Program-made: the position numbers and the translations under genes
Shown: positions 2,028 through 63,591 of the stretch, piece after piece
Layout of the letters: the number at the start of each line of letters is the position of its first letter
How positions within the stretch are numbered: the stretch's first letter is position 1
The notes under the pieces: model-generated
What the model was told of the DNA's origin: nothing
The model's input: the letters and a program-made list of their open reading frames with translations, nothing else
Database searches by the model: none
Origin: Clostridia bacterium
GTDB lineage: Bacteria; Bacillota; Clostridia; Christensenellales; CAG-138
Length of the DNA stretch: 64,000 bases
Assembly (NCBI GenBank): GCA_017547885.1
Contig: JAFYOP010000001.1
Coordinates: forward strand, 1,500-65,499
Direction of reading: 5' to 3'

Positions 2028-3386
2028 ATGAACAGCAAAACCGATCTTTGGATAGACAGCCGCAGGGAGGAGATAATCTCTGCCCTTCAGAAGCTCATCA
2101 CCTTCAAAAGCGTAAGCTGCAGAAGCGATGTGCCCGGAGAGCCCTTTGGCCCCGAGTGCAAAAAGGCCCTGACCCATACCCTGAGCCTGTGCAAGGATAT
2201 GGGCTTTGCCCCTGTTGATATGGATGGCTACATCGGCTATGCGGACTATGGCAAGGGGGAGGAGACCCTTGGCATACTCACTCACCTTGACGTTGTTCCC
2301 GAGGGGGACGGCTGGACAAAGGCAGGCCCCTATGAGGGCAGGGTAATAGACGGATGGATGGTGGGCCGCGGCACATTGGACGACAAGGGCCCCGCAATAG
2401 CCTCTGTATACGCCCTTGCCGCCGTAAAGGAAGCGGGCTATGAATTCCGCCGCAACGTGCGCCTTATATTCGGCTGCGACGAGGAGACCGGCATGGGCTG
2501 CCTCACCCATTACATGGAGCATGAGCGCATACCCGACATCGCCTTCTCTCCGGATGCGGAATACCCTCTGGTAAATTCCGAAAAGAACATATACCACGCA
2601 AAGTTTGCCTGTGAATATCCCTCTGCCATAACATTTAAGGCGGGCACCGTGGTAAACGCAGTTCCCGGCTCCGCTGAAGCCTTTGTTCCCTGCGCCATTG
2701 AAACCGTGCAGGCCGCCATAAATGGCAAAGATGGCCTTGAAGCAAAGGCCGCAGAGAACGGCACGGTGATAACCGCCACAGGCAGCGCCGCCCACGCTTC
2801 CACCCCCGAGTGCGGCAAAAACGCCATACAGATGATGATAGCCCTGCTGTGCGAGCTGCCCCTTCCTGAGGCCGATCTCAGTGCCCTCAGCGCCATAAAG
2901 GCCGCCTACGGCATGGAGTACAACGGCGAATCCGTTGGCCTTGACAAGAGCGACGAATCCGGCCGCCTTACCCTCAACCTTGGCCTTATGGACTGGAACG
3001 ACAAGGGCTATGCCCTCAGCATAGACATCCGCGCCCCTATTTCTGTATTGGAAGATGAAATAAGCGAAAAGCTTGCCGCCTCCCTGCCTATGGCAAAGCT
3101 TGAGGACGTATCCTTCAGCCACGGCCACTATGTGCCTGAGGACAGCGAGCTGGTAAGCGGCCTGCTTAAGGTTTACCGTGAGCGCACCGGGGATATGTCC
3201 GCCCCCAAGCGCATCGGCGGCGGCACCTATGCACGCCATTTCGATACCGCCGTCGCCTTCGGCATAGAGCGTGAGTATCGTGAAAACAGGCTGCACATGG
3301 TGGATGAGGCGCTGAACATGGATGATTTTATTGAGGACGTAAAGATAATGGCGGACGCCATAGTTGAGCTGGCCTGCGTAAAGTAG
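2028..3386 (+). CDS. pepV: M20-family dipeptidase (PepV / Sapep type)
   Basis: 452-aa ORF after AGGAGG. M20 hallmarks HLDVVPEGDGW, GRGTLDDKGP and FGCDEETG. Confidence 0.85.
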   Translation: MNSKTDLWIDSRREEIISALQKLITFKSVSCRSDVPGEPFGPECKKALTHTLSLCKDMGFAPVDMDGYIGYADYGKGEETLGILTHLDVVPEGDGWTKAGPYEGRVIDGWMVGRGTLDDKGPAIASVYALAAVKEAGYEFRRNVRLIFGCDEETGMGCLTHYMEHERIPDIAFSPDAEYPLVNSEKNIYHAKFACEYPSAITFKAGTVVNAVPGSAEAFVPCAIETVQAAINGKDGLEAKAAENGTVITATGSAAHASTPECGKNAIQMMIALLCELPLPEADLSALSAIKAAYGMEYNGESVGLDKSDESGRLTLNLGLMDWNDKGYALSIDIRAPISVLEDEISEKLAASLPMAKLEDVSFSHGHYVPEDSELVSGLLKVYRERTGDMSAPKRIGGGTYARHFDTAVAFGIEREYRENRLHMVDEALNMDDFIEDVKIMADAIVELACVK

Positions 3387-3610: not shown

Positions 3611-3645
3611 AAAGGGCTGTGGGAAACCACGGCCCTTTGATATTT
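3611..3645 (+). terminator. Intrinsic terminator after the FTR-like gene
   Basis: Stem GGGCTGTGG / CCACGGCCC with a GAAA loop, followed by TTTGATATTT. Confidence 0.7.
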
Positions 3646-3889
3646 ATCTAATCCCACCCACCACAGAACTAAAGTAATAGTGAATAGTGAAGGAGTATTT
3701 ATTATCTATACCCACCCGCCACCCTTTAAATGTATCTTCGCCTAATGGCGAAGACGGGGGAGGACGGATAAAGCTCCATTAACCGCGAATAACTCCATGG
3801 GGTGTAACCTATCCTGCCGATAGCACGTTTCGCTTCTCCCGCAGGGAGAAGCTTCCTTAAAGGGTGGAGGGTGGGTATAGATAATAAAT
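3641..3889. repeat. Family A quasi-palindromic element, copy A1 (extended variant)
   Basis: The order is a solo arm TATTTATCTAATCCCACCCACCACA, then a GTAATAGTGAATAGTGAAGGAGTATT module, then the full element 3697..3889. The element's arms are ATTTATTATCTATACCCACCCGCCACCCTTTAA and TTAAAGGGTGGAGGGTGGGTATAGATAATAAAT. Subterminal hairpins are TCTTCGCC-TAAT-GGCGAAGA and GCTTCTCCC-GCA-GGGAGAAGC. Confidence 0.85.
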
Positions 3890-3975: not shown

Positions 3976-4007
3976 ACAAAAAGCCCCATCCTTCATGGGG
4001 CTTTTTG
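3976..4007. terminator. Bidirectional intrinsic terminator (part of the C1 3'-UTR cassette)
   Basis: CAAAAA-AGCCCCAT-CCTTC-ATGGGGCT-TTTTT. An A-run lies upstream and a T-run downstream. A near-identical hairpin occurs at 35650..35679. Confidence 0.75.
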
Positions 4008-4051
4008 GGCAGCACACCTAAGCATGCTTACACTTGAATCAATTTAAAACT

Positions 4052-4122
4052 TTCGCTTTTCTTTCTCTTTTTGCTTCTTTTTCTTCTTTATTTTCGCGTC
4101 CGAAAAGAAAGAGAAAAAGAAG
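4052..4122 (+). repeat. Family C Py-Py-Pu triplex-type module, copy C1
   Basis: TTCGCTTTTCTTTCTCTTTTTGCTTCTTTTTCTTCTTTATTTTCGCGTCCGAAAAGAAAGAGAAAAAGAAG. Same tracts 1 and 3 as 35724..35794 and the reverse complement of 63642..63713. It starts 11 nt beyond the stop of minus-strand gene 4133..4783. Confidence 0.9.
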
Positions 4123-4132
4123 GTATATCAAA

Positions 4133-4783
4133 TCACTTCCTCCTCACCCGCACCCAAAAGCCGCTGCCGTCCCGGGCACGGAGGAAGCGGGTGTAGCCGG
4201 GAGGGCCGCTGCGGCCCTCTGCGGGAAGGGCGTGAATGAGATAATCCACACCCTTGTGGCGGGACTCCCCCTCAAGATAGCAGCGGTCCGTGCCGGGATA
4301 TTCCACCCGCCGCCAGCGGGAAAAGGGAAAAGCCTGAGGGAAGGGATTCAGTACCGCGTCATCCTGAGGCGGCGGGGGAAGGGGCTGGGGCTGTTCTGCG
4401 GGGAAAAGCTCCGCCGCCTTTTGCAGTATTTCAAGGAGAGCGGCGGAATTGGGCCGCTGGGGCTGCTTGGGCTGAGCTTGCGGCGGCTGCTCAGGGTGCC
4501 GGGGAGCAGGAATAGGCTTTTGAGCCGAAAGGCCCATCAGCAACGCCGTCCGTGCCTTGCCAAGGGCAGCGGAGTGCCCCGCAAGGCAGCCCTGCATGGC
4601 TATCCTGTCTCCATCCGGCACAAAGGCGCCCACCACGTCATTAGGGGCGGATTCCCGCGGGTATACCTTGCCCTGCCTGTCAATAAGGTACAGCTCCTTA
4701 CAGGGAACGGACAGCTGTATTTCCTCCCCCAGCGTAAGAAATGCCCTGCCGCCCGGGCCTGAAAGGGTAATGAGTCTTTTCAT
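4133..4783 (-). CDS. Hypothetical protein with a Pro/Gln-rich central linker
   Basis: Track ORF 4133..4918. Start moved to ATG 4783, preceded by AAAAGGAGA. No family recognised with confidence. Confidence 0.5.
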   Translation of the reverse strand: MKRLITLSGPGGRAFLTLGEEIQLSVPCKELYLIDRQGKVYPRESAPNDVVGAFVPDGDRIAMQGCLAGHSAALGKARTALLMGLSAQKPIPAPRHPEQPPQAQPKQPQRPNSAALLEILQKAAELFPAEQPQPLPPPPQDDAVLNPFPQAFPFSRWRRVEYPGTDRCYLEGESRHKGVDYLIHALPAEGRSGPPGYTRFLRARDGSGFWVRVRRK

Positions 4784-4877: not shown

Positions 4878-5588
4878 ATGAAAAACAAAAAGACCCTTTC
4901 GGCCCTGCTTACCGCCATAAGCTGCGTGGCATGGCTGGTGATAATAATCGCCCTGATGTTTACTTTCCTTAGGGGGGAGCTGAAAAACGAGAGCCGCTAT
5001 CTGGCCTTTTATGAGGAATACCGCATAGAGGAGCGTACAGGCCTTACCCCCAAGGGCGCCACCGATGCCCTTATGGCGCTGGTGGATTATATGGAAGGGG
5101 ACAGAGACAGCATACAGCTTACTGTTGAAGAATACGGCGTACCTGTTGAGATGTACTCTGAGGATGAGATACACCACATGGTGGATGTGTATTATCTCTA
5201 TCAGGGCTTTGCAAAGTTTCAGCCCGCGGGCATCGCATGCGCCGTGATAATACTGCTCATCGGCTGGTACGCAAAGAAAAACGCACTGCCCAATATACCC
5301 TTGCGGAGCTTTTTCCGGGGGCTGGGGCTGTTTGTGCTTATAGGGGGCGGCCTTGCCCTGTGGGCGATGCTGGATTTCACCTCCTTCTGGACGGCATTCC
5401 ACCTTGCCTTCTTCAGCAACGACCTGTGGCTGATGGACCCCAGAGTATCCCGCATGATACGCATATGCCCGGAGCACCTCTTCAGCGGCATTGCGGGCCG
5501 CATGGCCGCAAAGACCGCCGCAATGCTGGGCGTGATATGCATTGCCCTCATTACTTACAGCAGACATACCCGCAAAAAGGAAGCGTGA
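4878..5588 (+). CDS. TIGR01906/DUF1461 family integral membrane protein (Lit-like)
   Basis: 236-aa ORF after GAAAGGAAG. N-terminal TM segment, a middle domain with the EDEIHHMVDV motif, and C-terminal TM segments, as in TIGR01906 proteins. Confidence 0.7.
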   Translation: MKNKKTLSALLTAISCVAWLVIIIALMFTFLRGELKNESRYLAFYEEYRIEERTGLTPKGATDALMALVDYMEGDRDSIQLTVEEYGVPVEMYSEDEIHHMVDVYYLYQGFAKFQPAGIACAVIILLIGWYAKKNALPNIPLRSFFRGLGLFVLIGGGLALWAMLDFTSFWTAFHLAFFSNDLWLMDPRVSRMIRICPEHLFSGIAGRMAAKTAAMLGVICIALITYSRHTRKKEA

Positions 5589-6672: not shown

Positions 6673-6730
6673 GTTCTTTTCTTTAAAAGAAAAGAACCAA
6701 AAGAAGCGTACTTTCCTTAAAGGAAAGTAC
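6673..6730 (-). repeat. Family D twin Py/Pu hairpin module, copy D1 (Py-Py-Pu sense on the minus strand)
   Basis: GTTCTTTTCTTTAAAAGAAAAGAAC-CAAAAGAAGC-GTACTTTCCTTAAAGGAAAGTAC, 8 nt after the tsaD stop. Same module as the reverse complement of 62243..62314. Confidence 0.9.
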
Positions 6731-6781
6731 CAAAGGATAAATAACATAATTAAAAAAGTTTGCACAGAAGTGCTGTCAATC

Positions 6782-6809
6782 AAAAAAGCCACTCACGAGC
6801 GGCTTTTTT
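6782..6809. terminator. Bidirectional intrinsic terminator between tsaD and the AI-2E transporter gene
   Basis: AAAAAAGCCACTC-ACGA-GCGGCTTTTTT, flanked by an A-run and a T-run. Confidence 0.75.
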
Positions 6810-6860: not shown

Positions 6861-8000
6861 CTCCTGTCCTGCGGCCCGCTTTTCCTCCAGCCGCTTATTT
6901 ACCCATTCCCGCGTCATGGTGTGGATGACCGCCATAATGGGCACGCACAGCAGCGCTCCAAGGAAGCCGAACAAGCCGCCGCCCAAAAGCAGCGCTATCA
7001 ATACCCACAGGGGAGAGATGCCCACGGCGTTGCCCACAACGTGGGGGTAAATAAGGTTGCCCTCGATGGGCTGAATGGTGCATATCAGCAGTATGAACCA
7101 CAGTGCGCTGGGGGGATCCACCACAAACAGTATCACCGCGCCTATGCCTGCGGATACCCATGCGCCTACGATGGGTATCATCTGGCCCAGGCCCACCAAT
7201 ACGCTTATCAGCAGAGCAAAGGGGAACTTGAATATGCTCATGCCGATGAAGCACATGCCTCCCAGTATAAAGCACTCGGTAAGCATGCCGTATACATAAT
7301 TGTGCAGTGAGGTGTTGGTTTCGTCGCCTACGTGTATTATGTAATCTGCGGTGCGCTCATTGAACACGGCCTTGCAGAACTTGCGGGATTGACGGATAAG
7401 TGTCTCCTTGCCGGCAAGGCAGTATATGCTGATGATGAAAGCGAAGGCAAGGTCAACCAATACTCCGGCAAGCCCCATGGTGAACTTTACCGCAGCAGAG
7501 CTTACTGTGGAGATGTATTGGTATATCTCTGTAAGGATATTGTTGCCCATCTCCATCAGCTTGGCTTCCACTTCTTGGTTGAAGTTGAGGCTTTCCCAAA
7601 CGTTGGTGGCCCATTCGGTAAGGCTGGTGGCGTACTGGGTGAAGTCTGCTGCAAGGGTCTTTATGCTTTCCACCAGCTGAGGACCCACCACCAGCACAAG
7701 CGTTATGATTATTGCAAACACAAACAGCATTGCAAGCACAAGGCAGGTGCCCCGCTTTGCGCCGCAGTCCTTCCAGCGGCGGAATACCTTTGTCTCCAGA
7801 AAGTGCATGGGCATGTTTGCGATAAAGGCTATGGCAATGCCTATGAAAACAGGAGTAACAATGCTGACAAAGCCGCCGAGGGCAGAGCGCACCGCTGTCA
7901 GGTTTTCAAGTATTTCGTAAAGTATTATGCCGAAGGCCACAATGAACAGGGAACGTCGGGTGGACTTCCACAGGCTCTCCATGTTTGGTCTATCCTTCAC
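6855..8000 (-). CDS. AI-2E family transporter (PerM-like permease)
   Basis: 381-aa polytopic ORF. The C-terminal region IQPIEGNLIYPHVVGNAVGISPLWVLIALLLGG is typical of the AI-2E/UPF0118 family. Confidence 0.85.
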   Translation of the reverse strand: MKDRPNMESLWKSTRRSLFIVAFGIILYEILENLTAVRSALGGFVSIVTPVFIGIAIAFIANMPMHFLETKVFRRWKDCGAKRGTCLVLAMLFVFAIIITLVLVVGPQLVESIKTLAADFTQYATSLTEWATNVWESLNFNQEVEAKLMEMGNNILTEIYQYISTVSSAAVKFTMGLAGVLVDLAFAFIISIYCLAGKETLIRQSRKFCKAVFNERTADYIIHVGDETNTSLHNYVYGMLTECFILGGMCFIGMSIFKFPFALLISVLVGLGQMIPIVGAWVSAGIGAVILFVVDPPSALWFILLICTIQPIEGNLIYPHVVGNAVGISPLWVLIALLLGGGLFGFLGALLCVPIMAVIHTMTREWVNKRLEEKRAAGQEI

Positions 8001-10534: not shown

Positions 10535-10879
10535 GGGCGTTGCCCTTTCGCGAAAAACCATTTGGGTTTTCCGCGAGTATCCGCTGGGTTGGGGGCGGCC
10601 AAATGCTGCGCAAGTGGCCGAATACAATCCCTTTGGGGGATGCCGATTCCCTCTCGCGGCTGCGGCCGCTCCCGGGCGGGAATCGGGCAGCGGTATCCAT
10701 CCCTTGCGGGATGGTTCCGTTTTCGCCGCACATGTCGCCGAAAACGGATTGAAAGCTTTGGGCATGCTGCCGAATGCGGATTGAAAGCCTCGAAGGTCTA
10801 ATATCCTTCCGATAGCACGCCCTGTTTTTCCGCAAGGAAAAACATACCTTAAAAGGGTGGCGGGCGGGAATAGATAAAT
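10535..10879. repeat. Composite repeat A2: family B-like hairpin series fused to a family A right end
   Basis: The B-like part has TTCCCTCTCGCGG..CTCCCGGGCGGGAA, CCATCCC-TTGC-GGGATGG and CCGTTTTCGCCG-CACATGT-CGCCGAAAACGG. It ends with CCGATAGCACG, TGTTTTTCC-GCAA-GGAAAAACA and TTAAAAGGGTGGCGGGCGGGAATAGATAA. No left arm is present. Confidence 0.75.
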
Positions 10880-10964
10880 ATACCCAAACCTAACTTGCCT
10901 CAGTTGACAAAATTGCACCTGCGATTATGCGGGAGCAAAAATAAAGAACGGAAGTACACACCGT

Positions 10965-21892: not shown

Positions 21893-22034
21893 TGCAGGAT
21901 TTCCCTCTCGCCTTGCGGCTCCCGGGCGGGAAAGCCTGTAAAGAAAGAAAACCTTATGGTTTTCATCCGTTCTGACGCACATGTCGTCAGAGCCGGAATG
22001 AAAATCAAGGGGTGCGCCCCTTGATGATCCCGGA
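21893..22034. repeat. Family B structured intergenic repeat, copy B2
   Basis: Has TTTCCCTCTCGCC..CTCCCGGGCGGGAAA, then GAAAACC-TTAT-GGTTTTC, CATCCGTTCTGACG-CACATGT-CGTCAGAGCCGGAATG and ATCAAGGGG-TGCG-CCCCTTGAT, and closes with TCCCGGA. Confidence 0.75.
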
Positions 22035-22545: not shown

Positions 22546-22590
22546 GTGGGCCTCCTTTCTGCGGGTGCCTGTGGGGCAAGAGAAATGGCG

Positions 22591-22771
22591 TATTTATCTA
22601 TACCCACCCACCACCCTTTTAATGTGCTTTTTCCCTTACGGGAAAAAGGGCAGGGTTGTTCGCAAGCCCGTTCTGATATGCAATGATTTAGATGCGTGTC
22701 ATTGACAGCACCCTCGGCTTTTCCGCAGGAAAAGCTACATTAAAAGGGTGGCGGGCGGGATTAGATAATTA
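22591..22771. repeat. Family A quasi-palindromic element, copy A3
   Basis: Arms are TATTTATCTATACCCACCCACCACCCTTTTAATG and CATTAAAAGGGTGGCGGGCGGGATTAGATAATTA. Subterminal hairpins are CTTTTTCCC-TTAC-GGGAAAAAG and GCTTTTCC-GCA-GGAAAAGC. Confidence 0.9.
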
Positions 22772-22830
22772 TCCGTAAAACAACATCGATGACGTATACC
22801 ATGTACACGTCAGCGATTTATTTATGTGTG

Positions 22831-24595: not shown

Positions 24596-24632
24596 CGTTA
24601 TTCTTTGGTTCTTTTCTTTTAAAGAAAAGAAC
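24596..24632 (+). repeat. Family D module, single-hairpin variant D2
   Basis: ACGTTATTCTTTG-GTTCTTTTCTTTTAAAGAAAAGAAC, 6 nt beyond the stop of minus-strand gene 24639..25973. It equals D3 with the hairpin-b segment deleted. Confidence 0.85.
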
Positions 24633-31716: not shown

Positions 31717-31820
31717 GGGAATACCTTACCCACACAGGCAACACCGGCCTTTGGACAGAGCATCCCTTTTTCCCGCAGGGAAAAAGTACATTGAAGGGCG
31801 GTGGGAGGGAATAGATAATA
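31717..31820. repeat. Family A element, truncated copy A4 (right half plus a degenerate left arm)
   Basis: GGACAGAGCATCC, then CTTTTTCCC-GCA-GGGAAAAAG, then TACATTGAAGGGCGGTGGGAGGGAATAGATAATAAG. The left side has only a TACCTTACCCACACAGG remnant. Confidence 0.7.
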
Positions 31821-31830
31821 AGCCGCAAAT

Positions 31831-34664: not shown

Positions 34665-34916
34665 AAATTTATCTATACTCTGCCCGTAAATGAAGCTGCG
34701 GGTAATAATGAATGGTGAGAGAGTATTGATTATCTATTCCCACCCACCACCCTTTTAAGGTATCTTCGCCTGCCGGCGAAGACGGGACAGGTATGATAAA
34801 CCTCCGGCCTTTGCTAATAACCCAAAGGATAATGTACCGCATTATCGATGGAATGCTCGGCTTTTCCGTAGGAAAAGCTACATTAAAAGGGTGGCGGGTG
34901 GGATTAGATAATAATT
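34665..34916. repeat. Family A quasi-palindromic element, copy A5 (extended variant)
   Basis: The order is a solo arm start AATTTATCTATAC, then a GGTAATAATGAATGGTGAGAGAGTATT module, then the element. Its arms are GATTATCTATTCCCACCCACCACCCTTTTAAGG and CATTAAAAGGGTGGCGGGTGGGATTAGATAATAAT. Hairpins are TCTTCGCC-TGCC-GGCGAAGA and GCTTTTCC-GTA-GGAAAAGC. Confidence 0.85.
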
Positions 34917-35649: not shown

Positions 35650-35679
35650 AAAACGCCCCATCCTTCATGGGGCGTTTTT
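35650..35679. terminator. Bidirectional intrinsic terminator (part of the C2 3'-UTR cassette)
   Basis: AAAACGCCCCAT-CCTTC-ATGGGGCGTTTTT. Same hairpin as 3976..4007, with an A-T to C-G compensatory change at the stem base. Confidence 0.8.
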
Positions 35680-35723
35680 AGATAGCACGATCAGGCTTGC
35701 TTATTATATTTATTTGTTTAACG

Positions 35724-35794
35724 TTCGCTTTTCTTTCTCTTTTTGCTTCTTTTTCTGCTTTCTTTTCGCGTCCGAAAAGAAAGAGAAAAAGAAG
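35724..35794 (+). repeat. Family C Py-Py-Pu triplex-type module, copy C2
   Basis: TTCGCTTTTCTTTCTCTTTTTGCTTCTTTTTCTGCTTTCTTTTCGCGTCCGAAAAGAAAGAGAAAAAGAAG, 11 nt beyond the stop of minus-strand gene 35806..36750. Confidence 0.9.
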
Positions 35795-36753: not shown

Positions 36754-37902
36754 CTATACTCCAAACAGCTCCATAAGGGCGGATTCATTCAGCTTTGCGC
36801 CGATTACGCACAGCCTGCCGGTAACGCCTGCGCTGCCTTCGCGAACGTTTATCTCGCCGGGTACAAAGTCAAAGTGTATCCAGGCATTTTCGCCCTTCAG
36901 TATGCCCTTTGCCCTGAGTACCGCGCCGTACTTTTCCTCGTCCTCAAGGGCGGCAAGGGCAGCGGCGATACCTTCCGCAGAGAAGGCCTTGGCAGTTTCA
37001 ACGCCCCAGCTGGTGAATACTTCGTCAGCGTGATGATGGTGATGATGTCCGCACTCGCACTCGTGGTCATGCTCGTGATGATGGCCGCATTCGCACTCAT
37101 GGTCATGCTCGTGATGATGGCCGCATTCGCACTCGTGGTCATGCTCGTGATGATGGCCGCATTCGCACTCATGGTCGTGTTCGTGATGGCCGCACTCGCA
37201 CTCGTGGTCATGCTCGTGATGATGTCCGCACTCGCACTCGTGCTCGTGATGGTGGTGGTGATGATGCTCGCTTTCTGCCTTCAGGTGTGCAAGCTCCTCA
37301 TCAAGGGTGTCGCGGCGCTCCATGGCGGTGAGTATCTGTGCGCCGGTCAGCTCATCCCAGGGGGTAGTGATGAGGGTGGCATCGGCGTTGTGCTGACGGA
37401 TAAGCTCAACGGTGGCGGTGAGCTTGTCCTCGGATATGCCTGCGGTGCGGGAGAGGACTATGGAATTGGCGTGCTCTATCTGGTCGTTGAAGAATTCACC
37501 AAAGTTCTTCATGTACATCCTGCACTTGTTGGCGTCAACGATGGCGGTAAAGCTGTTGAGCTGCAGCTCCTCTGCTCCCACGTCCTGTACGGCGCGGATA
37601 ACGTCGCTGAGCTTGCCTACGCCGGAGGGCTCTATCAGTATACGGTCGGGGGAGTACTGCTCCAGCACCTTCTTGAGGGCCTCGCCAAAATCGCCCACCA
37701 GGCTGCAGCAGATGCAGCCGGAGTTCATTTCGGTAACCTCAATTCCGGCTTCCTCAAGGAAACCGCCGTCAATGCCTATTTCACCGAATTCGTTTTCTAT
37801 AAGTACCAGCTTTTCCCCGCCAAATGCCTCGGGGATGAGCTTCTTGATGAGAGTAGTCTTGCCTGCGCCCAGGAAGCCGGAAAAAATATCTACCTTTGTC
37901 AT
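36754..37902 (-). CDS. CobW/COG0523 family GTP-dependent metallochaperone with a long His/Cys repeat insert
   Basis: Track ORF 36754..38055, start set at ATG 37902 (MTKVDIFSGFLGAGKTT); ATG 37914 is an alternative. Has the CICCS motif (CxCC), the ILIEPSGVG switch and a CobW C-terminal domain. The insert is (HDHECECGHHHE)n. Confidence 0.85.
   Translation of the reverse strand: MTKVDIFSGFLGAGKTTLIKKLIPEAFGGEKLVLIENEFGEIGIDGGFLEEAGIEVTEMNSGCICCSLVGDFGEALKKVLEQYSPDRILIEPSGVGKLSDVIRAVQDVGAEELQLNSFTAIVDANKCRMYMKNFGEFFNDQIEHANSIVLSRTAGISEDKLTATVELIRQHNADATLITTPWDELTGAQILTAMERRDTLDEELAHLKAESEHHHHHHHEHECECGHHHEHDHECECGHHEHDHECECGHHHEHDHECECGHHHEHDHECECGHHHEHDHECECGHHHHHHADEVFTSWGVETAKAFSAEGIAAALAALEDEEKYGAVLRAKGILKGENAWIHFDFVPGEINVREGSAGVTGRLCVIGAKLNESALMELFGV
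37030..37268 (-). repeat. Coding tandem repeat, 36-bp unit x about 5.5, inside the COG0523 gene
   Basis: Units GCCGCATTCGCACTC(A/G)TGGTCATGCTCGTGATGATG begin at 37048, 37084, 37120, 37156 (33 bp) and 37189. They encode HHHEHDHECECG repeats flanked by His runs. Confidence 0.9.
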
Positions 37903-38113
37903 GGTTTGATGCATCTCTTTTCGTTGTATTTTGAGAAGGAAGACTGCAAAAGGCCATCCCTCCACAACTGTATTATAGTCAGACAGAAGCGGATATACAA
38001 GGGCACACGGGCATTTTCTTGCTATGTTCACAGGTAAGGAGGAATTTCGCCACAAATTATGAACAAATGCGTATTATAGGTGAACTGAATAAAAAATATG
38101 GTATAATAGGCCT

Positions 38114-60083: not shown

Positions 60084-60203
60084 CAAACAAAAGGGCAACC
60101 CGATTCACATACTCAAATGAGAATCAGCTTGCCCAGGCGGTCGGCTTATTGCGTACGGTTCCCTTGTGGTAAGCCACTTCCGCCAGTAGCCGTACGAGTA
60201 GTA
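60084..60203 (-). promoter_or_regulatory. ZTP (pfl motif) riboswitch with a terminator expression platform, upstream of purE
   Basis: The minus strand reads CGUACGG-CUACUGGCGGAAGUGGCUUACCACAAGGGAA-CCGUACG-CAAUAAG-CCGACCGCCUGGGCA. This contains the conserved ACUGGCGGA, GUGG/CCAC and CCGACCGCCUGGGCA pseudoknot blocks. The GGGCA overlaps the 5' arm of terminator GGGCAAGCUGAUUC..GAAUCGGGUUGCCC-UUUUGUUUG. Confidence 0.9.
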
Positions 60204-61704: not shown

Positions 61705-61967
61705 TGGGTAACCTCCTGTGAATGAATAATGTATAATTTATCTCCCCGAGCATGCATCGGGATACGATGCAGTCCGACAAAATTACGGACAAATCTTCAT
61801 TATACTACCACGGCAAGGGGGGATTCGCAACAATAAATTGAAGCTTTTTTATGGCATCAGCCCCTTAATTTACGCATGAATGACAGTACAAAATCCGATG
61901 GAAAAAATGGAATGGGAAGGGAGGGCAAACCTGTTGAAATAATAGAAAAAGACGGGCGGCAAAGGAG

Positions 61968-62153
61968 TAATTATCTATCCCCACCCGTCACCCTTTTAAT
62001 GTATATTCGCCTTACGGAGAAGAAAAAGGAGTATAAATTATATGTAAACCTGAAAAGCATGCACTGACATTATCCGGTGTCAGCGTAAGCTTATCCTTTT
62101 TTCCCGTAAGGGAAAAAGTACATTGAAGGGTGGAGGGAGGGAATAGATAATTA
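61968..62153. repeat. Family A quasi-palindromic element, copy A6
   Basis: Arms are TAATTATCTATCCCCACCCGTCACCCTTTTAATG and CATTGAAGGGTGGAGGGAGGGAATAGATAATTA. The right subterminal hairpin is CTTTTTTCCC-GTAA-GGGAAAAAG. Confidence 0.85.
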
Positions 62154-62179
62154 AAAAGCTCACTTTTTGCCAAAACCAC

Positions 62180-62208
62180 AAATTCGGCCTCCCATCGAGG
62201 CCGAATTT
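62180..62208 (-). terminator. Intrinsic terminator of serS
   Basis: AAATTCGGCCTC-CCATC-GAGGCCGAATTT. On the minus strand it is followed by TTTGTGGTTTTGG. Confidence 0.75.
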
Positions 62209-62242
62209 GGATAGCATATGTATGGTTTTTAATAGGTTATTT

Positions 62243-62314
62243 TACGCTATTCTTTGGTACTTTCTTTTAAAGAAAGTACGCTTCTTTTGGTTCTTTTCTT
62301 TTAAAGAAAAGAAC
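62243..62314 (+). repeat. Family D twin Py/Pu hairpin module, copy D3 (Py-Py-Pu sense on the plus strand)
   Basis: TACGCTATTCTTTG-GTACTTTCTTTTAAAGAAAGTAC-GCTTCTTTTG-GTTCTTTTCTTTTAAAGAAAAGAAC, ending 8 nt from the serS stop codon. Confidence 0.9.
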
Positions 62315-62322
62315 ATACAAAA

Positions 62323-63591
62323 CTACTTAATGTACTCACAGCCCATATACTTCACCAGCGCATCCGGCACCTTAACGGAGCCGTCGGGCTGCTGATAGTT
62401 TTCAAGGATAGCGGCAACGGTGCGGCCCACAGCCACGCCGGAGCCGTTGAGGGTGTGAACCAGCTCGGGCTTTGCGCCCTTTTCGCGGCGGAAGCGTATC
62501 TGGGCGCGGCGTGCCTGGAAGTCCTCAAAGTTGGAGCAGGAGCTTATTTCAACGTAGCGGTTGTAGCTGGGCATCCATACCTCGATATCGTAGGTTTTGG
62601 CGCTGGAGAAGCCCAGATCGCCGGTGGACAGGGTAACCACACGATAGGGAAGGCCAAGGCCCTGCAGCACACGCTCTGCGTCGGCGGTGAGGGACTCAAG
62701 CTCTGCGTAGGAATCCTCGGGCTTTGCAAACTTTACCAGCTCTACCTTGTTGAACTGATGCTGGCGGATAAGGCCGCGGGTGTCACGTCCTGCGCTGCCT
62801 GCCTCGCTGCGGAAGCATGCGCTGTATGCGCAGTACTTGATGGGCAGCATATCGCCGTCAACTATTTCGCCGCGAAGCATGTTGGTTACGGGTACCTCTG
62901 CGGTGGGGATGAGGAAGTAATCGGTATTGGTCACCTTGAAAGCATCCTCCTCAAACTTGGGCAGCTGACCGGTGCCTGTCATGGAGGCGCGGTTTACCAT
63001 GTAGGGAGGCAGAATCTCGGTGTAGCCGTTTTCGCTGTGGGTATCCAGGAAATAGCTGATGATAGCACGCTCCAGCCTTGCGCCAAGGCCGCGGTATACG
63101 GTAAAGCGTGCGCCGGTTATTTTGCCTGCGGTGGCAAAGTCCAGTATGTTCAGGCCTTCGCCGATGTCCCAGTGTGCCTTGGGCTCGAAATCAAAGGATG
63201 GCACTTCGCCCCAGCGGCGCATTTCAACGTTGTCCTGATCGTCTGCGCCTTCGGGTACGGATTCGTGGGGGATGTTGGGAATGGACAGCAGCATGCCGTT
63301 CATTTCCTCGTCCATGGCGGCAATCTGATCGTCCAGCTCCTTTATCTGAGCGCCGACCTTTTTCATTTCCGCCATCAGCTCGGTGGTGTCCTGACCTGCC
63401 TTCTTCATGGCAGGGACCTTGGCGGATTCTTCGTTGCGGCGGGCCTTGAGCTGCTCTGCCTCCTGCATGAGCTCACGGCGCTTTGCATCCATTTGGATAA
63501 GGCCGGATACGTCCGCGCCCTTGCTGCGGCGCTTTCTCATGGCCTCGGTCAGTGCTTCGGGGTTCTGGCGTATGCGTTTGATGTCCAGCAT
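62323..63591 (-). CDS. serS: Serine--tRNA ligase
   Basis: Track ORF 62323..63693, start set at ATG 63591 after AGGAGGAAAACAATA ([12 protein letters not shown]). Class II motifs [21 protein letters not shown] and GSGVAVGRT. Confidence 0.95.

Follow-up and report, generated by a model that had tools for sequence, protein, structure and literature searches.

What is the two-hairpin element that separates the stop codon of serS from its terminator in this uncultured Clostridia bacterium, known from a metagenome-assembled genome, and what might its symmetry serve? We analysed the 64,000-nucleotide (nt) stretch of contig JAFYOP010000001.1 that holds it, here called the window. An earlier note, made from the letters alone, had described the element, D3, as two hairpins with mirror tracts beginning 8 nt past the serS stop, and both the coordinates and the description are correct. 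Sequence comparison lets us identify D3 with high confidence as one genuine copy of a module dispersed between genes. It is the short form, with 2 x 6-8 potential triples, of a family in which a clamped hairpin is followed by a mirror tract. With the same high confidence, family C (16-17 potential triples) is the long form of the family to which D belongs. Stems, clamps and third tracts are constrained together, as their joint variation among copies shows.

A two-hairpin module behind the serS stop codon

The serS coding sequence occupies 62323..63591 on the minus strand, as given by its open reading frame (ORF) and translation, and ends with TAG at 62323-62325. A protein identical to its product is annotated as serine--tRNA ligase, and carries Pfam domains PF02403 and PF00587. 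A spacer of 8 nt (62315..62322) leads to hairpin 1 (62290..62314, minus strand; sense GTTCTTTTCTTTAAAAGAAAAGAAC), a stem predicted on both strands and closed by the clamp GTTC/GAAC, in which 62311-62314 pair with 62290-62293. Its third tract follows at 62280..62289 (sense CAAAAGAAGC, that is C-AAAAGAAG-C; plus strand gcttcttttg). Hairpin 2 (62257..62279; sense GTACTTTCTTTAAAAGAAAGTAC), with the clamp GTAC/GTAC, is also predicted to fold on both strands and has its own third tract at 62247..62256 (sense CAAAGAATAG, that is C-AAAGAA-TAG; plus strand ctattctttg). Elsewhere in family D the spacer between stop codon and module is 5-16 nt long and its sequence is not conserved.

Both hairpins follow one mirror register. 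Past the 4-bp clamp and one C, the tract mirrors that part of the arm which lies above the clamp, with 7/8 positions matching in hairpin 1 and 6/6 in hairpin 2, in agreement with the 6-7 triples per hairpin that had been predicted. Two alternatives, a mirror register at offset 0 and a tract that directly repeats the arm's 3' end, fitted less well than the register that skips the clamp. Hairpin loops measure 3-5 nt, and the second loop, made of a clamp strand plus C, 5 nt. The tracts had been called pyrimidine, which holds for the plus strand; in the RNA of the serS 3' untranslated region (UTR), where they lie 3' of each hairpin, they are purine.

D3 lies within the transcribed region between the serS stop and the terminator. 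An AT-rich spacer of 29 nt (62218..62246, including the flank CGTAAAA at 62240-62246), somewhat shorter than the earlier estimate of about 35 nt, separates it from a box (62209..62217; sense ATGCTATCC, plus strand GGATAGCAT). The box abuts the A-run of a bidirectional intrinsic terminator (62179..62209) whose stem, 62182-62206, has flanking A/T runs. Behind D2 and behind the copies in loci L008 and L254 the flank ACGTAAAA is found again; it resembles the flank of C2.

The hairpins are far better than chance would provide. On either strand the minimum-energy fold of the region consists of both D3 hairpins plus the terminator (-53.9 kcal/mol), with z = -7.8 and -7.4 for the two strands and 0/200 shuffles as good. 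The D hairpin motif has 9 matches in the window, counting overlapping matches on both strands to five hairpins, against 0.04 expected. Identical or variant copies of hairpin 1 stand at 6673-6697 and 24608-24632, and others occur in relatives. As terminators in the serS sense the D hairpins do not qualify: they are A/U-rich and are followed by purine tracts, with no U tract. On the antisense strand, hairpin 2 plus GCTTCTTTTG passes a loose terminator scan. Rfam 15 at gathering threshold returned no match for D3, the C modules or a neighbouring inverted-repeat element, its only hits in the window being one tRNA and one ZTP riboswitch elsewhere; under a permissive scan the best local scores were 15-20 bits, far under the thresholds.

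Three strands that change together

The window holds three D and three C copies in 64 kb, all of them intergenic, and a seventh copy follows argS just beyond it (L001). D1 (two hairpins; 6673..6740, plus strand) begins 8 nt past the stop of a gene with a TsaD domain and is followed by a box (6770-6777) and a terminator (6785-6806). D2 (one hairpin; 24596..24632, minus strand) lies 10 nt past the stop of a DUF1015 gene, and its third tract is mismatched (4/6). The C1 cassette (3981..4122, minus strand) comprises a module at 4048-4122, 10 nt past a stop at 4133, then a spacer, a box (4007-4015) and a terminator (3981-4003). The C2 cassette (35653..35794, minus strand) has its module at 35720-35794, 11 nt past the stop of a CobW-like gene, its box at 35680-35688 and its terminator at 35653-35675. 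C3 (63641..63715, minus strand) is a C module turned the other way round, so that in the serS sense its third tract comes first; it lies 49 nt before the serS ATG.

C and D modules share one architecture. Read on the strand that carries the purine tract at its 3' end, the order is a 4-nt clamp strand, a homopyrimidine arm, a loop, a homopurine arm, the complementary clamp, a linker base and the mirror purine tract. The linker is a single nucleotide, almost always C, and the mirror tract begins at the first pair above the clamp. Clamps are Watson-Crick paired and co-vary (GTTC/GAAC, GTAC/GTAC, CTTC/GAAG, CTGC/GCAG). C modules mostly carry one bulged base in mid-stem, of any identity; C1-C3 have 17 mirrored positions with one bulge. 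Their T-run patterns include 4,3,1,5|5,1,3,4; 5,3,1,4|4,1,3,5; 4,1,3,4|4,3,1,4 and 5,3,4|4,3,5, and one example matches at 25/25 positions.

The third tract follows the sequence of its own stem. The mirror relation is unambiguous in family C because C cores are not mirror-symmetric: 15/16 modules align better in mirror than in direct order, and for 13/16 the best mirror partner among 12 distinct tracts is the module's own. In family D, third tracts match the stem at 125/132 positions across 19 distinct modules in one register. Neither permuting tracts among modules nor drawing random purine tracts of equal composition reached 125/132 in 50,000 trials each (0/50,000 in both cases), p-values that overstate independence, the copies being related by descent. 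Arms and tracts also change together. Between the second hairpins of D1 (6708-6730) and D3, a U-A pair has become C-G with a matching A-to-G change in the third tract, and across D copies A4G goes with A4G, A3G with A3G and A6G with A6G, including a change from A4GA2G to A6G. Where a D core is asymmetric it favours mirror over direct alignment, 8/8 against 4/8 by hand count for core GAAGAAAA and tract AAAAGAAG.

That the D3 tracts are accidents of low-complexity, A-rich flanks, the hairpins alone mattering and the likeness to C being superficial, is therefore very improbable and largely refuted, given that random tracts never reached the observed match, that arm and tract change in step (A4G to A3G, A4GA2G to A6G, A to G), and that D has the clamp, linker and register of C with intermediates between them. 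What the idea has on its side is that the tracts are short (6-8 nt) and 80% A, and that the majority of D arm cores are their own mirror image, so that mirror and direct readings are hard to tell apart there and, by hand comparison, coincide for several copies. Three modules, D2, hairpin 2 of L006 and the argS copy of L008, have mismatched third tracts (4-5/6) and look recombinant. Asymmetry of G-U wobbles was tried as a way of deciding the RNA strand; on hand inspection mismatches were too few and fell in both directions. In L006 (1099-1130, minus strand) the 5' half of D hairpin 1 is partly duplicated in tandem (CACTTGTTCTTTTCTTTAGACTGCACTTGTTCTTTTCTTT...), and the stop of the upstream ORF falls inside the duplicate.

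The serS locus across relatives

The serS locus offers an orthologous series. In eight further loci with 93-99% SerS protein identity, a module stands 7-12 nt past the stop in every case. It has two hairpins in L008, L253, L254 and L256 and one in L009, L255 and L257; in L010 the contig ends just past the first, leaving at least one. Clamps are GTTC, GTAC or CTTC and the cores vary, and the three-way match is kept at 6/6 to 8/8. The earlier note had proposed a search for intermediates between C and D, and two are present at this site: hairpin 2 of L253 and the module of L255 have D size with the clamp and linker of family C (CTTC...GAAG-C). In L011 (88% identity) and L012 (84%), only a plain terminator or unrelated sequence follows serS.

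Around this site, modules come and go. Upstream of serS, at the C3 site, C variants occur in L008, L009, L253, L254, L255 and L257 and are absent from L010, L256, L011 and L012. The argS copy of D is absent from L009 and L255, and also from L010 and L256, where argS abuts serS. The serS terminator is the same in L009, L253, L254, L255 and L257. Synteny with the window breaks directly after the module in L008 and after its terminator in L009. In L008, at about 6870-6920, a consensus promoter (TTGACA, 18 nt, TATAAT) sits right behind the serS D module; a G+C-rich structured stretch follows, possibly an unannotated small RNA gene, and it is exactly there that synteny breaks.

Beyond the series, the two forms differ in range. 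Among 185,579 species genomes, one per species, the D junction pattern matched only three other Clostridia metagenome-assembled genomes, so D is clade-restricted. A metagenome scan for C returned mostly Lys/Glu-coding noise, and after filtering by hand it left C-type modules in several further lineages, with 13 to 25 mirrored positions. An association with phages found no support: among viral contigs the D junction gave one chance coding match, and 1/124 matches to the C pattern was a true module.

Such turnover would suit a selfish or neutral repeat of REP/MITE type, spread or gene-converted and tolerated between stops and terminators, whose symmetry served mobilisation (as folded single-stranded DNA, for example) or was inherited from a founder. 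Copies are many, six in 64 kb and one just outside, in functionally unrelated host genes; presence and form vary between close relatives, as in the missing upstream C of L010 and L256 and the choice of one or two hairpins. Some modules look recombinant (D2, the L008 argS copy), L006 has its partial duplication, L253 a duplicated block of C plus ribosome-binding site (RBS), one C module a nested insertion, and in another lineage a C-like motif sits inside an element of roughly 290 bp with 28-nt terminal inverted repeats. We nevertheless hold this origin to be improbable. No transposase or target duplication was found beside the copies, a single one of 124 viral-contig matches is a true module, founder inheritance cannot explain at least 12 C cores and at least 5 D cores each with its own mirror partner, and the serS 3' module is kept in every relative with at least 93% serS identity.

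In L253, 4885-6001, a block of hairpin, ACAGCAC box, spacer, C module and RBS is present twice, before geneX and before serS. A hairpin-rich insert (CCCCGAAAATCC..GATTTTCGGG, GTCAAAGC..GCTTTGAC), nested in the pyrimidine tract, interrupts the C module behind the sigma-70 gene immediately past GCTTCTTT; it lies in the interval between serS and the sigma-70 gene, at about 7450-7650 in L253, 2450-2650 in L254 and 4480-4660 in L255, and is about 85 nt long in L253 and L254 and longer in L255. In L044, 3285-3575 (also L048, L060, L095, L106 and L129), a C-like module (5,3,4|4,3,5 or 5,4,4|4,4,5) occupies the middle of the roughly 290-bp element, whose 28-nt terminal inverted repeats read TTACATAAAAAATATTATCGGTC; the element lies between divergent genes in an AT-rich digester-metagenome lineage.

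Position and polarity at gene ends

Modules are tied to the ends of genes. At about nine loci examined (serS, argS, gyrB, the tsaD-domain gene, the DUF1015 gene and others), every D copy lies 5-16 nt past a stop codon with its purine tracts downstream in the gene sense. C occurs with the same polarity 6-13 nt past stops, in C1 and C2, behind the sigma-70 gene (L008, L009, L253, L257) and in other lineages (L015, L033). It also occurs inverted, 22-49 nt before start codons: those of serS in seven genomes, gyrB and gyrA in L004, and one gene in L005. In both settings of C the hairpin adjoins the ORF and the third tract is distal. The proposal that C and D are size variants of one system is thus largely right, in view of their common architecture, shared genomes, stop-proximal site, intermediates and covariation; it needs the qualification that C also stands inverted in 5' UTRs and D does not.

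This polarity follows genes, not replication. GC skew in the window is non-negative in 15/16 bins with no sustained sign change, and D1 lies on the plus strand with D2 and D3 on the minus strand. Copies on both strands under a steady skew rule out replication strand as what sets orientation.

In L004, a related metagenome-assembled genome, gyrA and gyrB each have a C module in the 5' UTR (2821-2925 and 5211-5320), 22-30 nt before RBS and ATG, and gyrB has in addition a D module 5 nt past its stop. Gyrase genes are supercoiling-sensitive. Their appearance among the hosts may be coincidence or may not.

Box and terminator

A box and a terminator often accompany the module and are facultative for D, not obligatory. 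Of 45 oriented terminators in the window, four have the strict box RTGCTRYC in the 30 nt before them, exactly those of C1, C2, D1 and D3. The loose form GRKAGCAY is not enriched window-wide (15 matches against 17.9 expected), so that only its position at C and D terminators is special. C cassettes in several genomes have in common the spacer, the box and often a terminator of the type GCCCCATC..GATGGGGC. The parallel that had been drawn between the C and D arrangements therefore stands for these four cassettes, and not as a fixed unit, for relatives have lost or truncated the parts. The serS 3' module of L008 has neither box nor terminator, the serS box is shortened to ATGC/ACGC in L009, L255 and L257, and the D copies between argS and geneX are intercistronic and have no box or terminator. 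In L004 the place of the box is taken by another repeat element that bears the same box. Pairing of the box with the module flank was considered; it gives 8/9 pairs in D3 by hand and nothing comparable in D1, C1 or C2.

On the opposite strand the box reads xxGAYA, matching TTGACA at 4-6/6 positions, as a -35 hexamer would. This points to a reading in which the AT-rich spacer holds a -10 and the module forms a 5' leader: its strands would come in pyrimidine-motif order and might fold into a U.A-U/C+.G-C RNA triplex capping the 5' end. Where a module precedes serS, gyrA or gyrB, such a leader would belong to that gene itself, and D3 would drive an antisense RNA, now or formerly, or be a relic. 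A -10-like hexamer does occur 16-18 nt past the box, more often than in shuffled spacers (p = 0.0016), which in a set of homologous cassettes is no test of function. Box and module are spaced almost uniformly, by 43-45 nt in C and by 38-39 nt in D, copies of C in 5' UTRs keep the sense order hairpin, box, spacer, module (L008, L253, gyrA), and pyrimidine-motif triplexes do form in RNA (PMC4666352). At D3 itself the reading fares poorly: a consensus promoter scan there found none, and the local -10 is TAATAG (3/6). The T that is conserved at the end of the -10 is missing from several cassettes, the 5' copy of L005 leaves no room for a promoter, and the constant abutment of D on stop codons goes unexplained. 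We rate it quite unlikely.

Comparison with known repeats

C and D modules are intrastrand-triplex motifs by definition, falling in class II when read on the coding strand and in class IV when read on its complement, which describes a potential only. ITxF/PIT motifs are defined by a pyrimidine block, its Watson-Crick purine partner and a mirror third block, with stems of 6-15 nt, at most one mismatch and loops of 1-6 nt. D3 and C1-C3 have this class II/IV arrangement at sequence level, and the D motif is likewise multi-copy, intergenic and over-represented. Bacterial repeats of this kind are known as PIT/BoxC/TM_ECO in E. coli and relatives (Holder et al. 2015, PMC4666352), the PIT elements going back to Hoyne et al. 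2000 as cited there. Like C and D, BoxC/TM_ECO places pyrimidine arm, purine arm and mirror purine tract on one strand (class II; complement IV or III), with short loops that are less conserved than the stems, in multiple, strictly intergenic copies that vary between close strains.

The differences are equally clear. BoxC is G/C-rich with fixed 9-nt blocks (CCCTCNCCC...), whereas C and D are A/G-rich, span 6-25 positions, have a 4-bp clamp and 1-nt linker, and in C usually a 1-nt mid-stem bulge that BoxC lacks. Membership in the BoxC sequence family was rejected, its consensus CCCTCNCCC N3-6 GGGNGAGGG N3 GGGNGAGGG being unlike the A/G-rich modules (GAAAAGAAC, CAAAAGAAG). Position sets them apart too: TM_ECO has no orientation bias and no preferred distance to ORFs, whereas C and D are directed by the gene, 5-16 nt past stops or 22-49 nt before starts, and so cannot be placed with BoxC/TM_ECO on that ground. 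C and D, unlike BoxC/TM_ECO, are accompanied by a box and terminator. We regard C/D as a new, A/G-rich variant of PIT-type repeats, tied to gene boundaries.

A rival reading is that the module acts as DNA. An intrastrand triplex or H-DNA/cruciform, of the BoxC/TM_ECO kind, might form transiently on the non-template strand or under transcription supercoiling, slowing polymerase before the terminator, absorbing supercoils or promoting rearrangement, and the RNA hairpins would then be a by-product. Watson-Crick pairing gives no reason for mirror symmetry, which triplex and H-DNA by definition require; both strands satisfy a triplex class at once; and DNA purine-motif triplexes are stable at neutral pH, those of RNA being unreported (PMC4666352). 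The synteny breaks of L008 and L009 are in line with the genomic instability reported for TM_ECO, and supercoiling-sensitive gyrA and gyrB are among the hosts. We nonetheless think it unlikely, since it predicts neither the strict polarity, with the hairpin by the ORF, the tract distal and 5-16 nt to the stop, nor an orientation that tracks gene direction. A 1-nt linker over a 4-bp clamp would be hard to fit to the wide major groove of B-DNA, and for TM_ECO neither a triplex signal in vivo nor activity as a terminator or promoter was obtained (PMC4666352). A 2026 review still calls bacterial triplex function unresolved (PMC13463272). For BoxC/TM_ECO, the family studied most closely, genomic instability is the one functional effect seen. 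As an H-DNA mirror repeat, where arms are about 10 nt or more, D3 with arms of 6-8 nt was rejected; family C, with arms of 16-17 nt around the 5-nt spacer GAAGC, fits.

REP/BIME elements are imperfect, extragenic palindromes of 20-40 nt in many copies, a description that also fits the hairpins here, which measure 23-25 nt and are all intergenic. Both are short dispersed hairpins of 3' UTRs and intercistronic regions, often right behind stops and before terminators. REPs stabilise upstream mRNA against 3' exonucleases, and those within about 15 nt of stop codons reportedly stall terminating ribosomes, a finding attributed to Liang, Rudd and Deutscher in 2015. Unlike C and D, REPs lack a mirror third tract and homopurine/homopyrimidine arms, and carry a GTAG-type foot for RAYT transposases. 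No such foot is seen in C or D, where the foot is GTTC, GTAC or CTTC within a paired clamp, and no RAYT was seen, no systematic search having been made.

ENE/MALAT1 elements resemble the RNA readings of C/D, as a triple helix at the transcript end protects against exonucleolytic decay; long ENE triplexes are broken by a "reset", and the mid-stem bulge of C might act alike. ENEs are eukaryotic or viral, and we know of no bacterial example; a literature search for one found none. In an ENE an A-rich 3' tail lies between two U-rich strands (U.A-U), whereas the D3 serS sense has one U-rich and two A-rich strands, and an ENE/MALAT1-type helix, in which two U-rich strands clamp an A-rich tract, was rejected for it accordingly. 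Pneumococcal BOX and Neisseria Correia elements, compared by description because no likeness in sequence is expected, are also modular multi-copy intergenic cassettes with hairpins, promoter- or terminator-like signals and variable module number; they differ in having terminal inverted repeats and target-site duplications and in being without triplex symmetry. Our literature search found no description of a triple helix in the RNA of a bacterial UTR, nor of the C/D repeat.

A possible RNA barrier

We tentatively favour a reading of D3, possible though short of even, as an RNA barrier behind the serS stop with a putative triple-stranded cap. No particular mechanism earns more than this, and some considerably less. 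D3 would be transcribed as the first part of the serS 3' UTR, and its clamp-closed hairpins would form in the mRNA a structured block right behind the stop codon. By analogy with REP, this block could shield the coding part from 3'-to-5' exonucleases, and it would be within reach of a terminating ribosome. The third tract may then fold back along the stem, with the one linker base bridging the groove at the 4-bp clamp, and make a short triple-stranded cap. A linker of 1 nt that spans 4 bp is reminiscent of loop 1 of an H-type pseudoknot crossing the narrow, deep groove of the A form, which would favour an RNA helix. Box and terminator would be separate, exchangeable modules of the cassette. 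The intercistronic copies between argS and geneX, without a terminator, fit an RNA barrier better than a terminator helper.

Four points weigh against this account. In serS mRNA, D3 has exactly the purine-motif arrangement, and purine-motif triplexes are reported not to form in RNA (PMC4666352), which makes such a helix chemically doubtful. The "predicted triples" of the earlier note accordingly hold as sequence potential and not as structures to be expected in this mRNA. With no purine-motif RNA triplex on record, the three-strand contact of D3 may instead be made on DNA during transcription or in RNA of the other strand, whose pyrimidine-motif order is chemically sound and recurs in the 5' leaders of serS, gyrA and gyrB; candidate sites are thus the mRNA, the displaced non-template DNA and the complementary, pyrimidine-motif strand. 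The inverted C modules in the 5' UTRs of serS, gyrA and gyrB are not explained by a pure 3'-barrier role. The mismatched tracts of three D modules imply that the third tract is not indispensable, and common descent tempers the statistics of covariation.

Other repeats and features of the window

The intergenic DNA of the source genome is unusually rich in dispersed structured repeats. A second family consists of long inverted repeats, ATTATCTATWCCCACCCRCCACCCTTTWAAWGT ... ACATTAAAAGGGTGGCGGGYGGGAWTAGATAAT, around about 100 nt (3692-3888, 22584-22772, 34720-34915 and 61961-62154; half copies at 3634-3675, 10822-10881 and 31763-31822). Each half has a CTTTTTCCC..GGGAAAAAG hairpin whose G-rich arm is G-quadruplex-like. 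At 3819-3826, 10811-10818 and 22704-22711 the box of the C/D cassettes recurs as GTGCTATC or GTGCTGTC, 4-5 nt past such a hairpin. These elements, which have no Rfam match, are often found right behind C/D cassettes, in L004 and L257 as well. Intergenic repeats of a CGCACATGTCGCCGAAAACGGATTGAAA unit occur at 1898-1925, 10727-10786 and 21976-22003, with a stretch of L009 at about 3060-3100 listed with these families, and a 91-nt repeat with a terminal hairpin ATCAAGGGG..CCCCTTGAT stands at 1844-1934 and 21922-22012.

Two further features lie apart from these. Seven copies of a 36-nt tandem repeat (37007-37296) fall within an ORF at 36754..38055 (minus strand) beside the CobW-like GTPase gene; they are rich in CAT/CAC/GAG/TGC codons, giving a stretch rich in His, Glu and Cys, and the product is likely a metal-binding or metallochaperone partner. 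The ZMP/ZTP riboswitch at 60124-60200 (minus strand; 53 bits, above gathering threshold) lies upstream of purE/purC.

Meaning for the family

D3 on its own is of modest weight. The value of the serS locus lies in the series of orthologues, in which modules turn over while three-way complementarity is kept, and in the intermediates from D to C. Unlike BoxC, the C/D family supplies many variants whose three strands change in concert, a geometry fixed by 4-bp clamp, 1-nt linker and mid-stem bulge, and a strict position and polarity relative to the stop and start codons of housekeeping genes. Through these features an RNA-end cap, a transcription-coupled DNA triplex and a promoter-leader cassette become directly testable hypotheses. 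A broader and unlikely hypothesis, read from the arrangement of the modules, is that this clade and several metagenome lineages keep triple-helix-forming modules at gene boundaries by selection, third strand away from the ORF, capping mRNA ends against exonucleases. At 5' leaders (serS, gyrA, gyrB) these would form a pyrimidine-motif RNA triplex, and behind stops either a purine-motif RNA triplex or a transcription-coupled DNA triplex. If that were true, either post-stop form would be the first comparative, covariation-based evidence of a functional triple helix of this type in bacteria.

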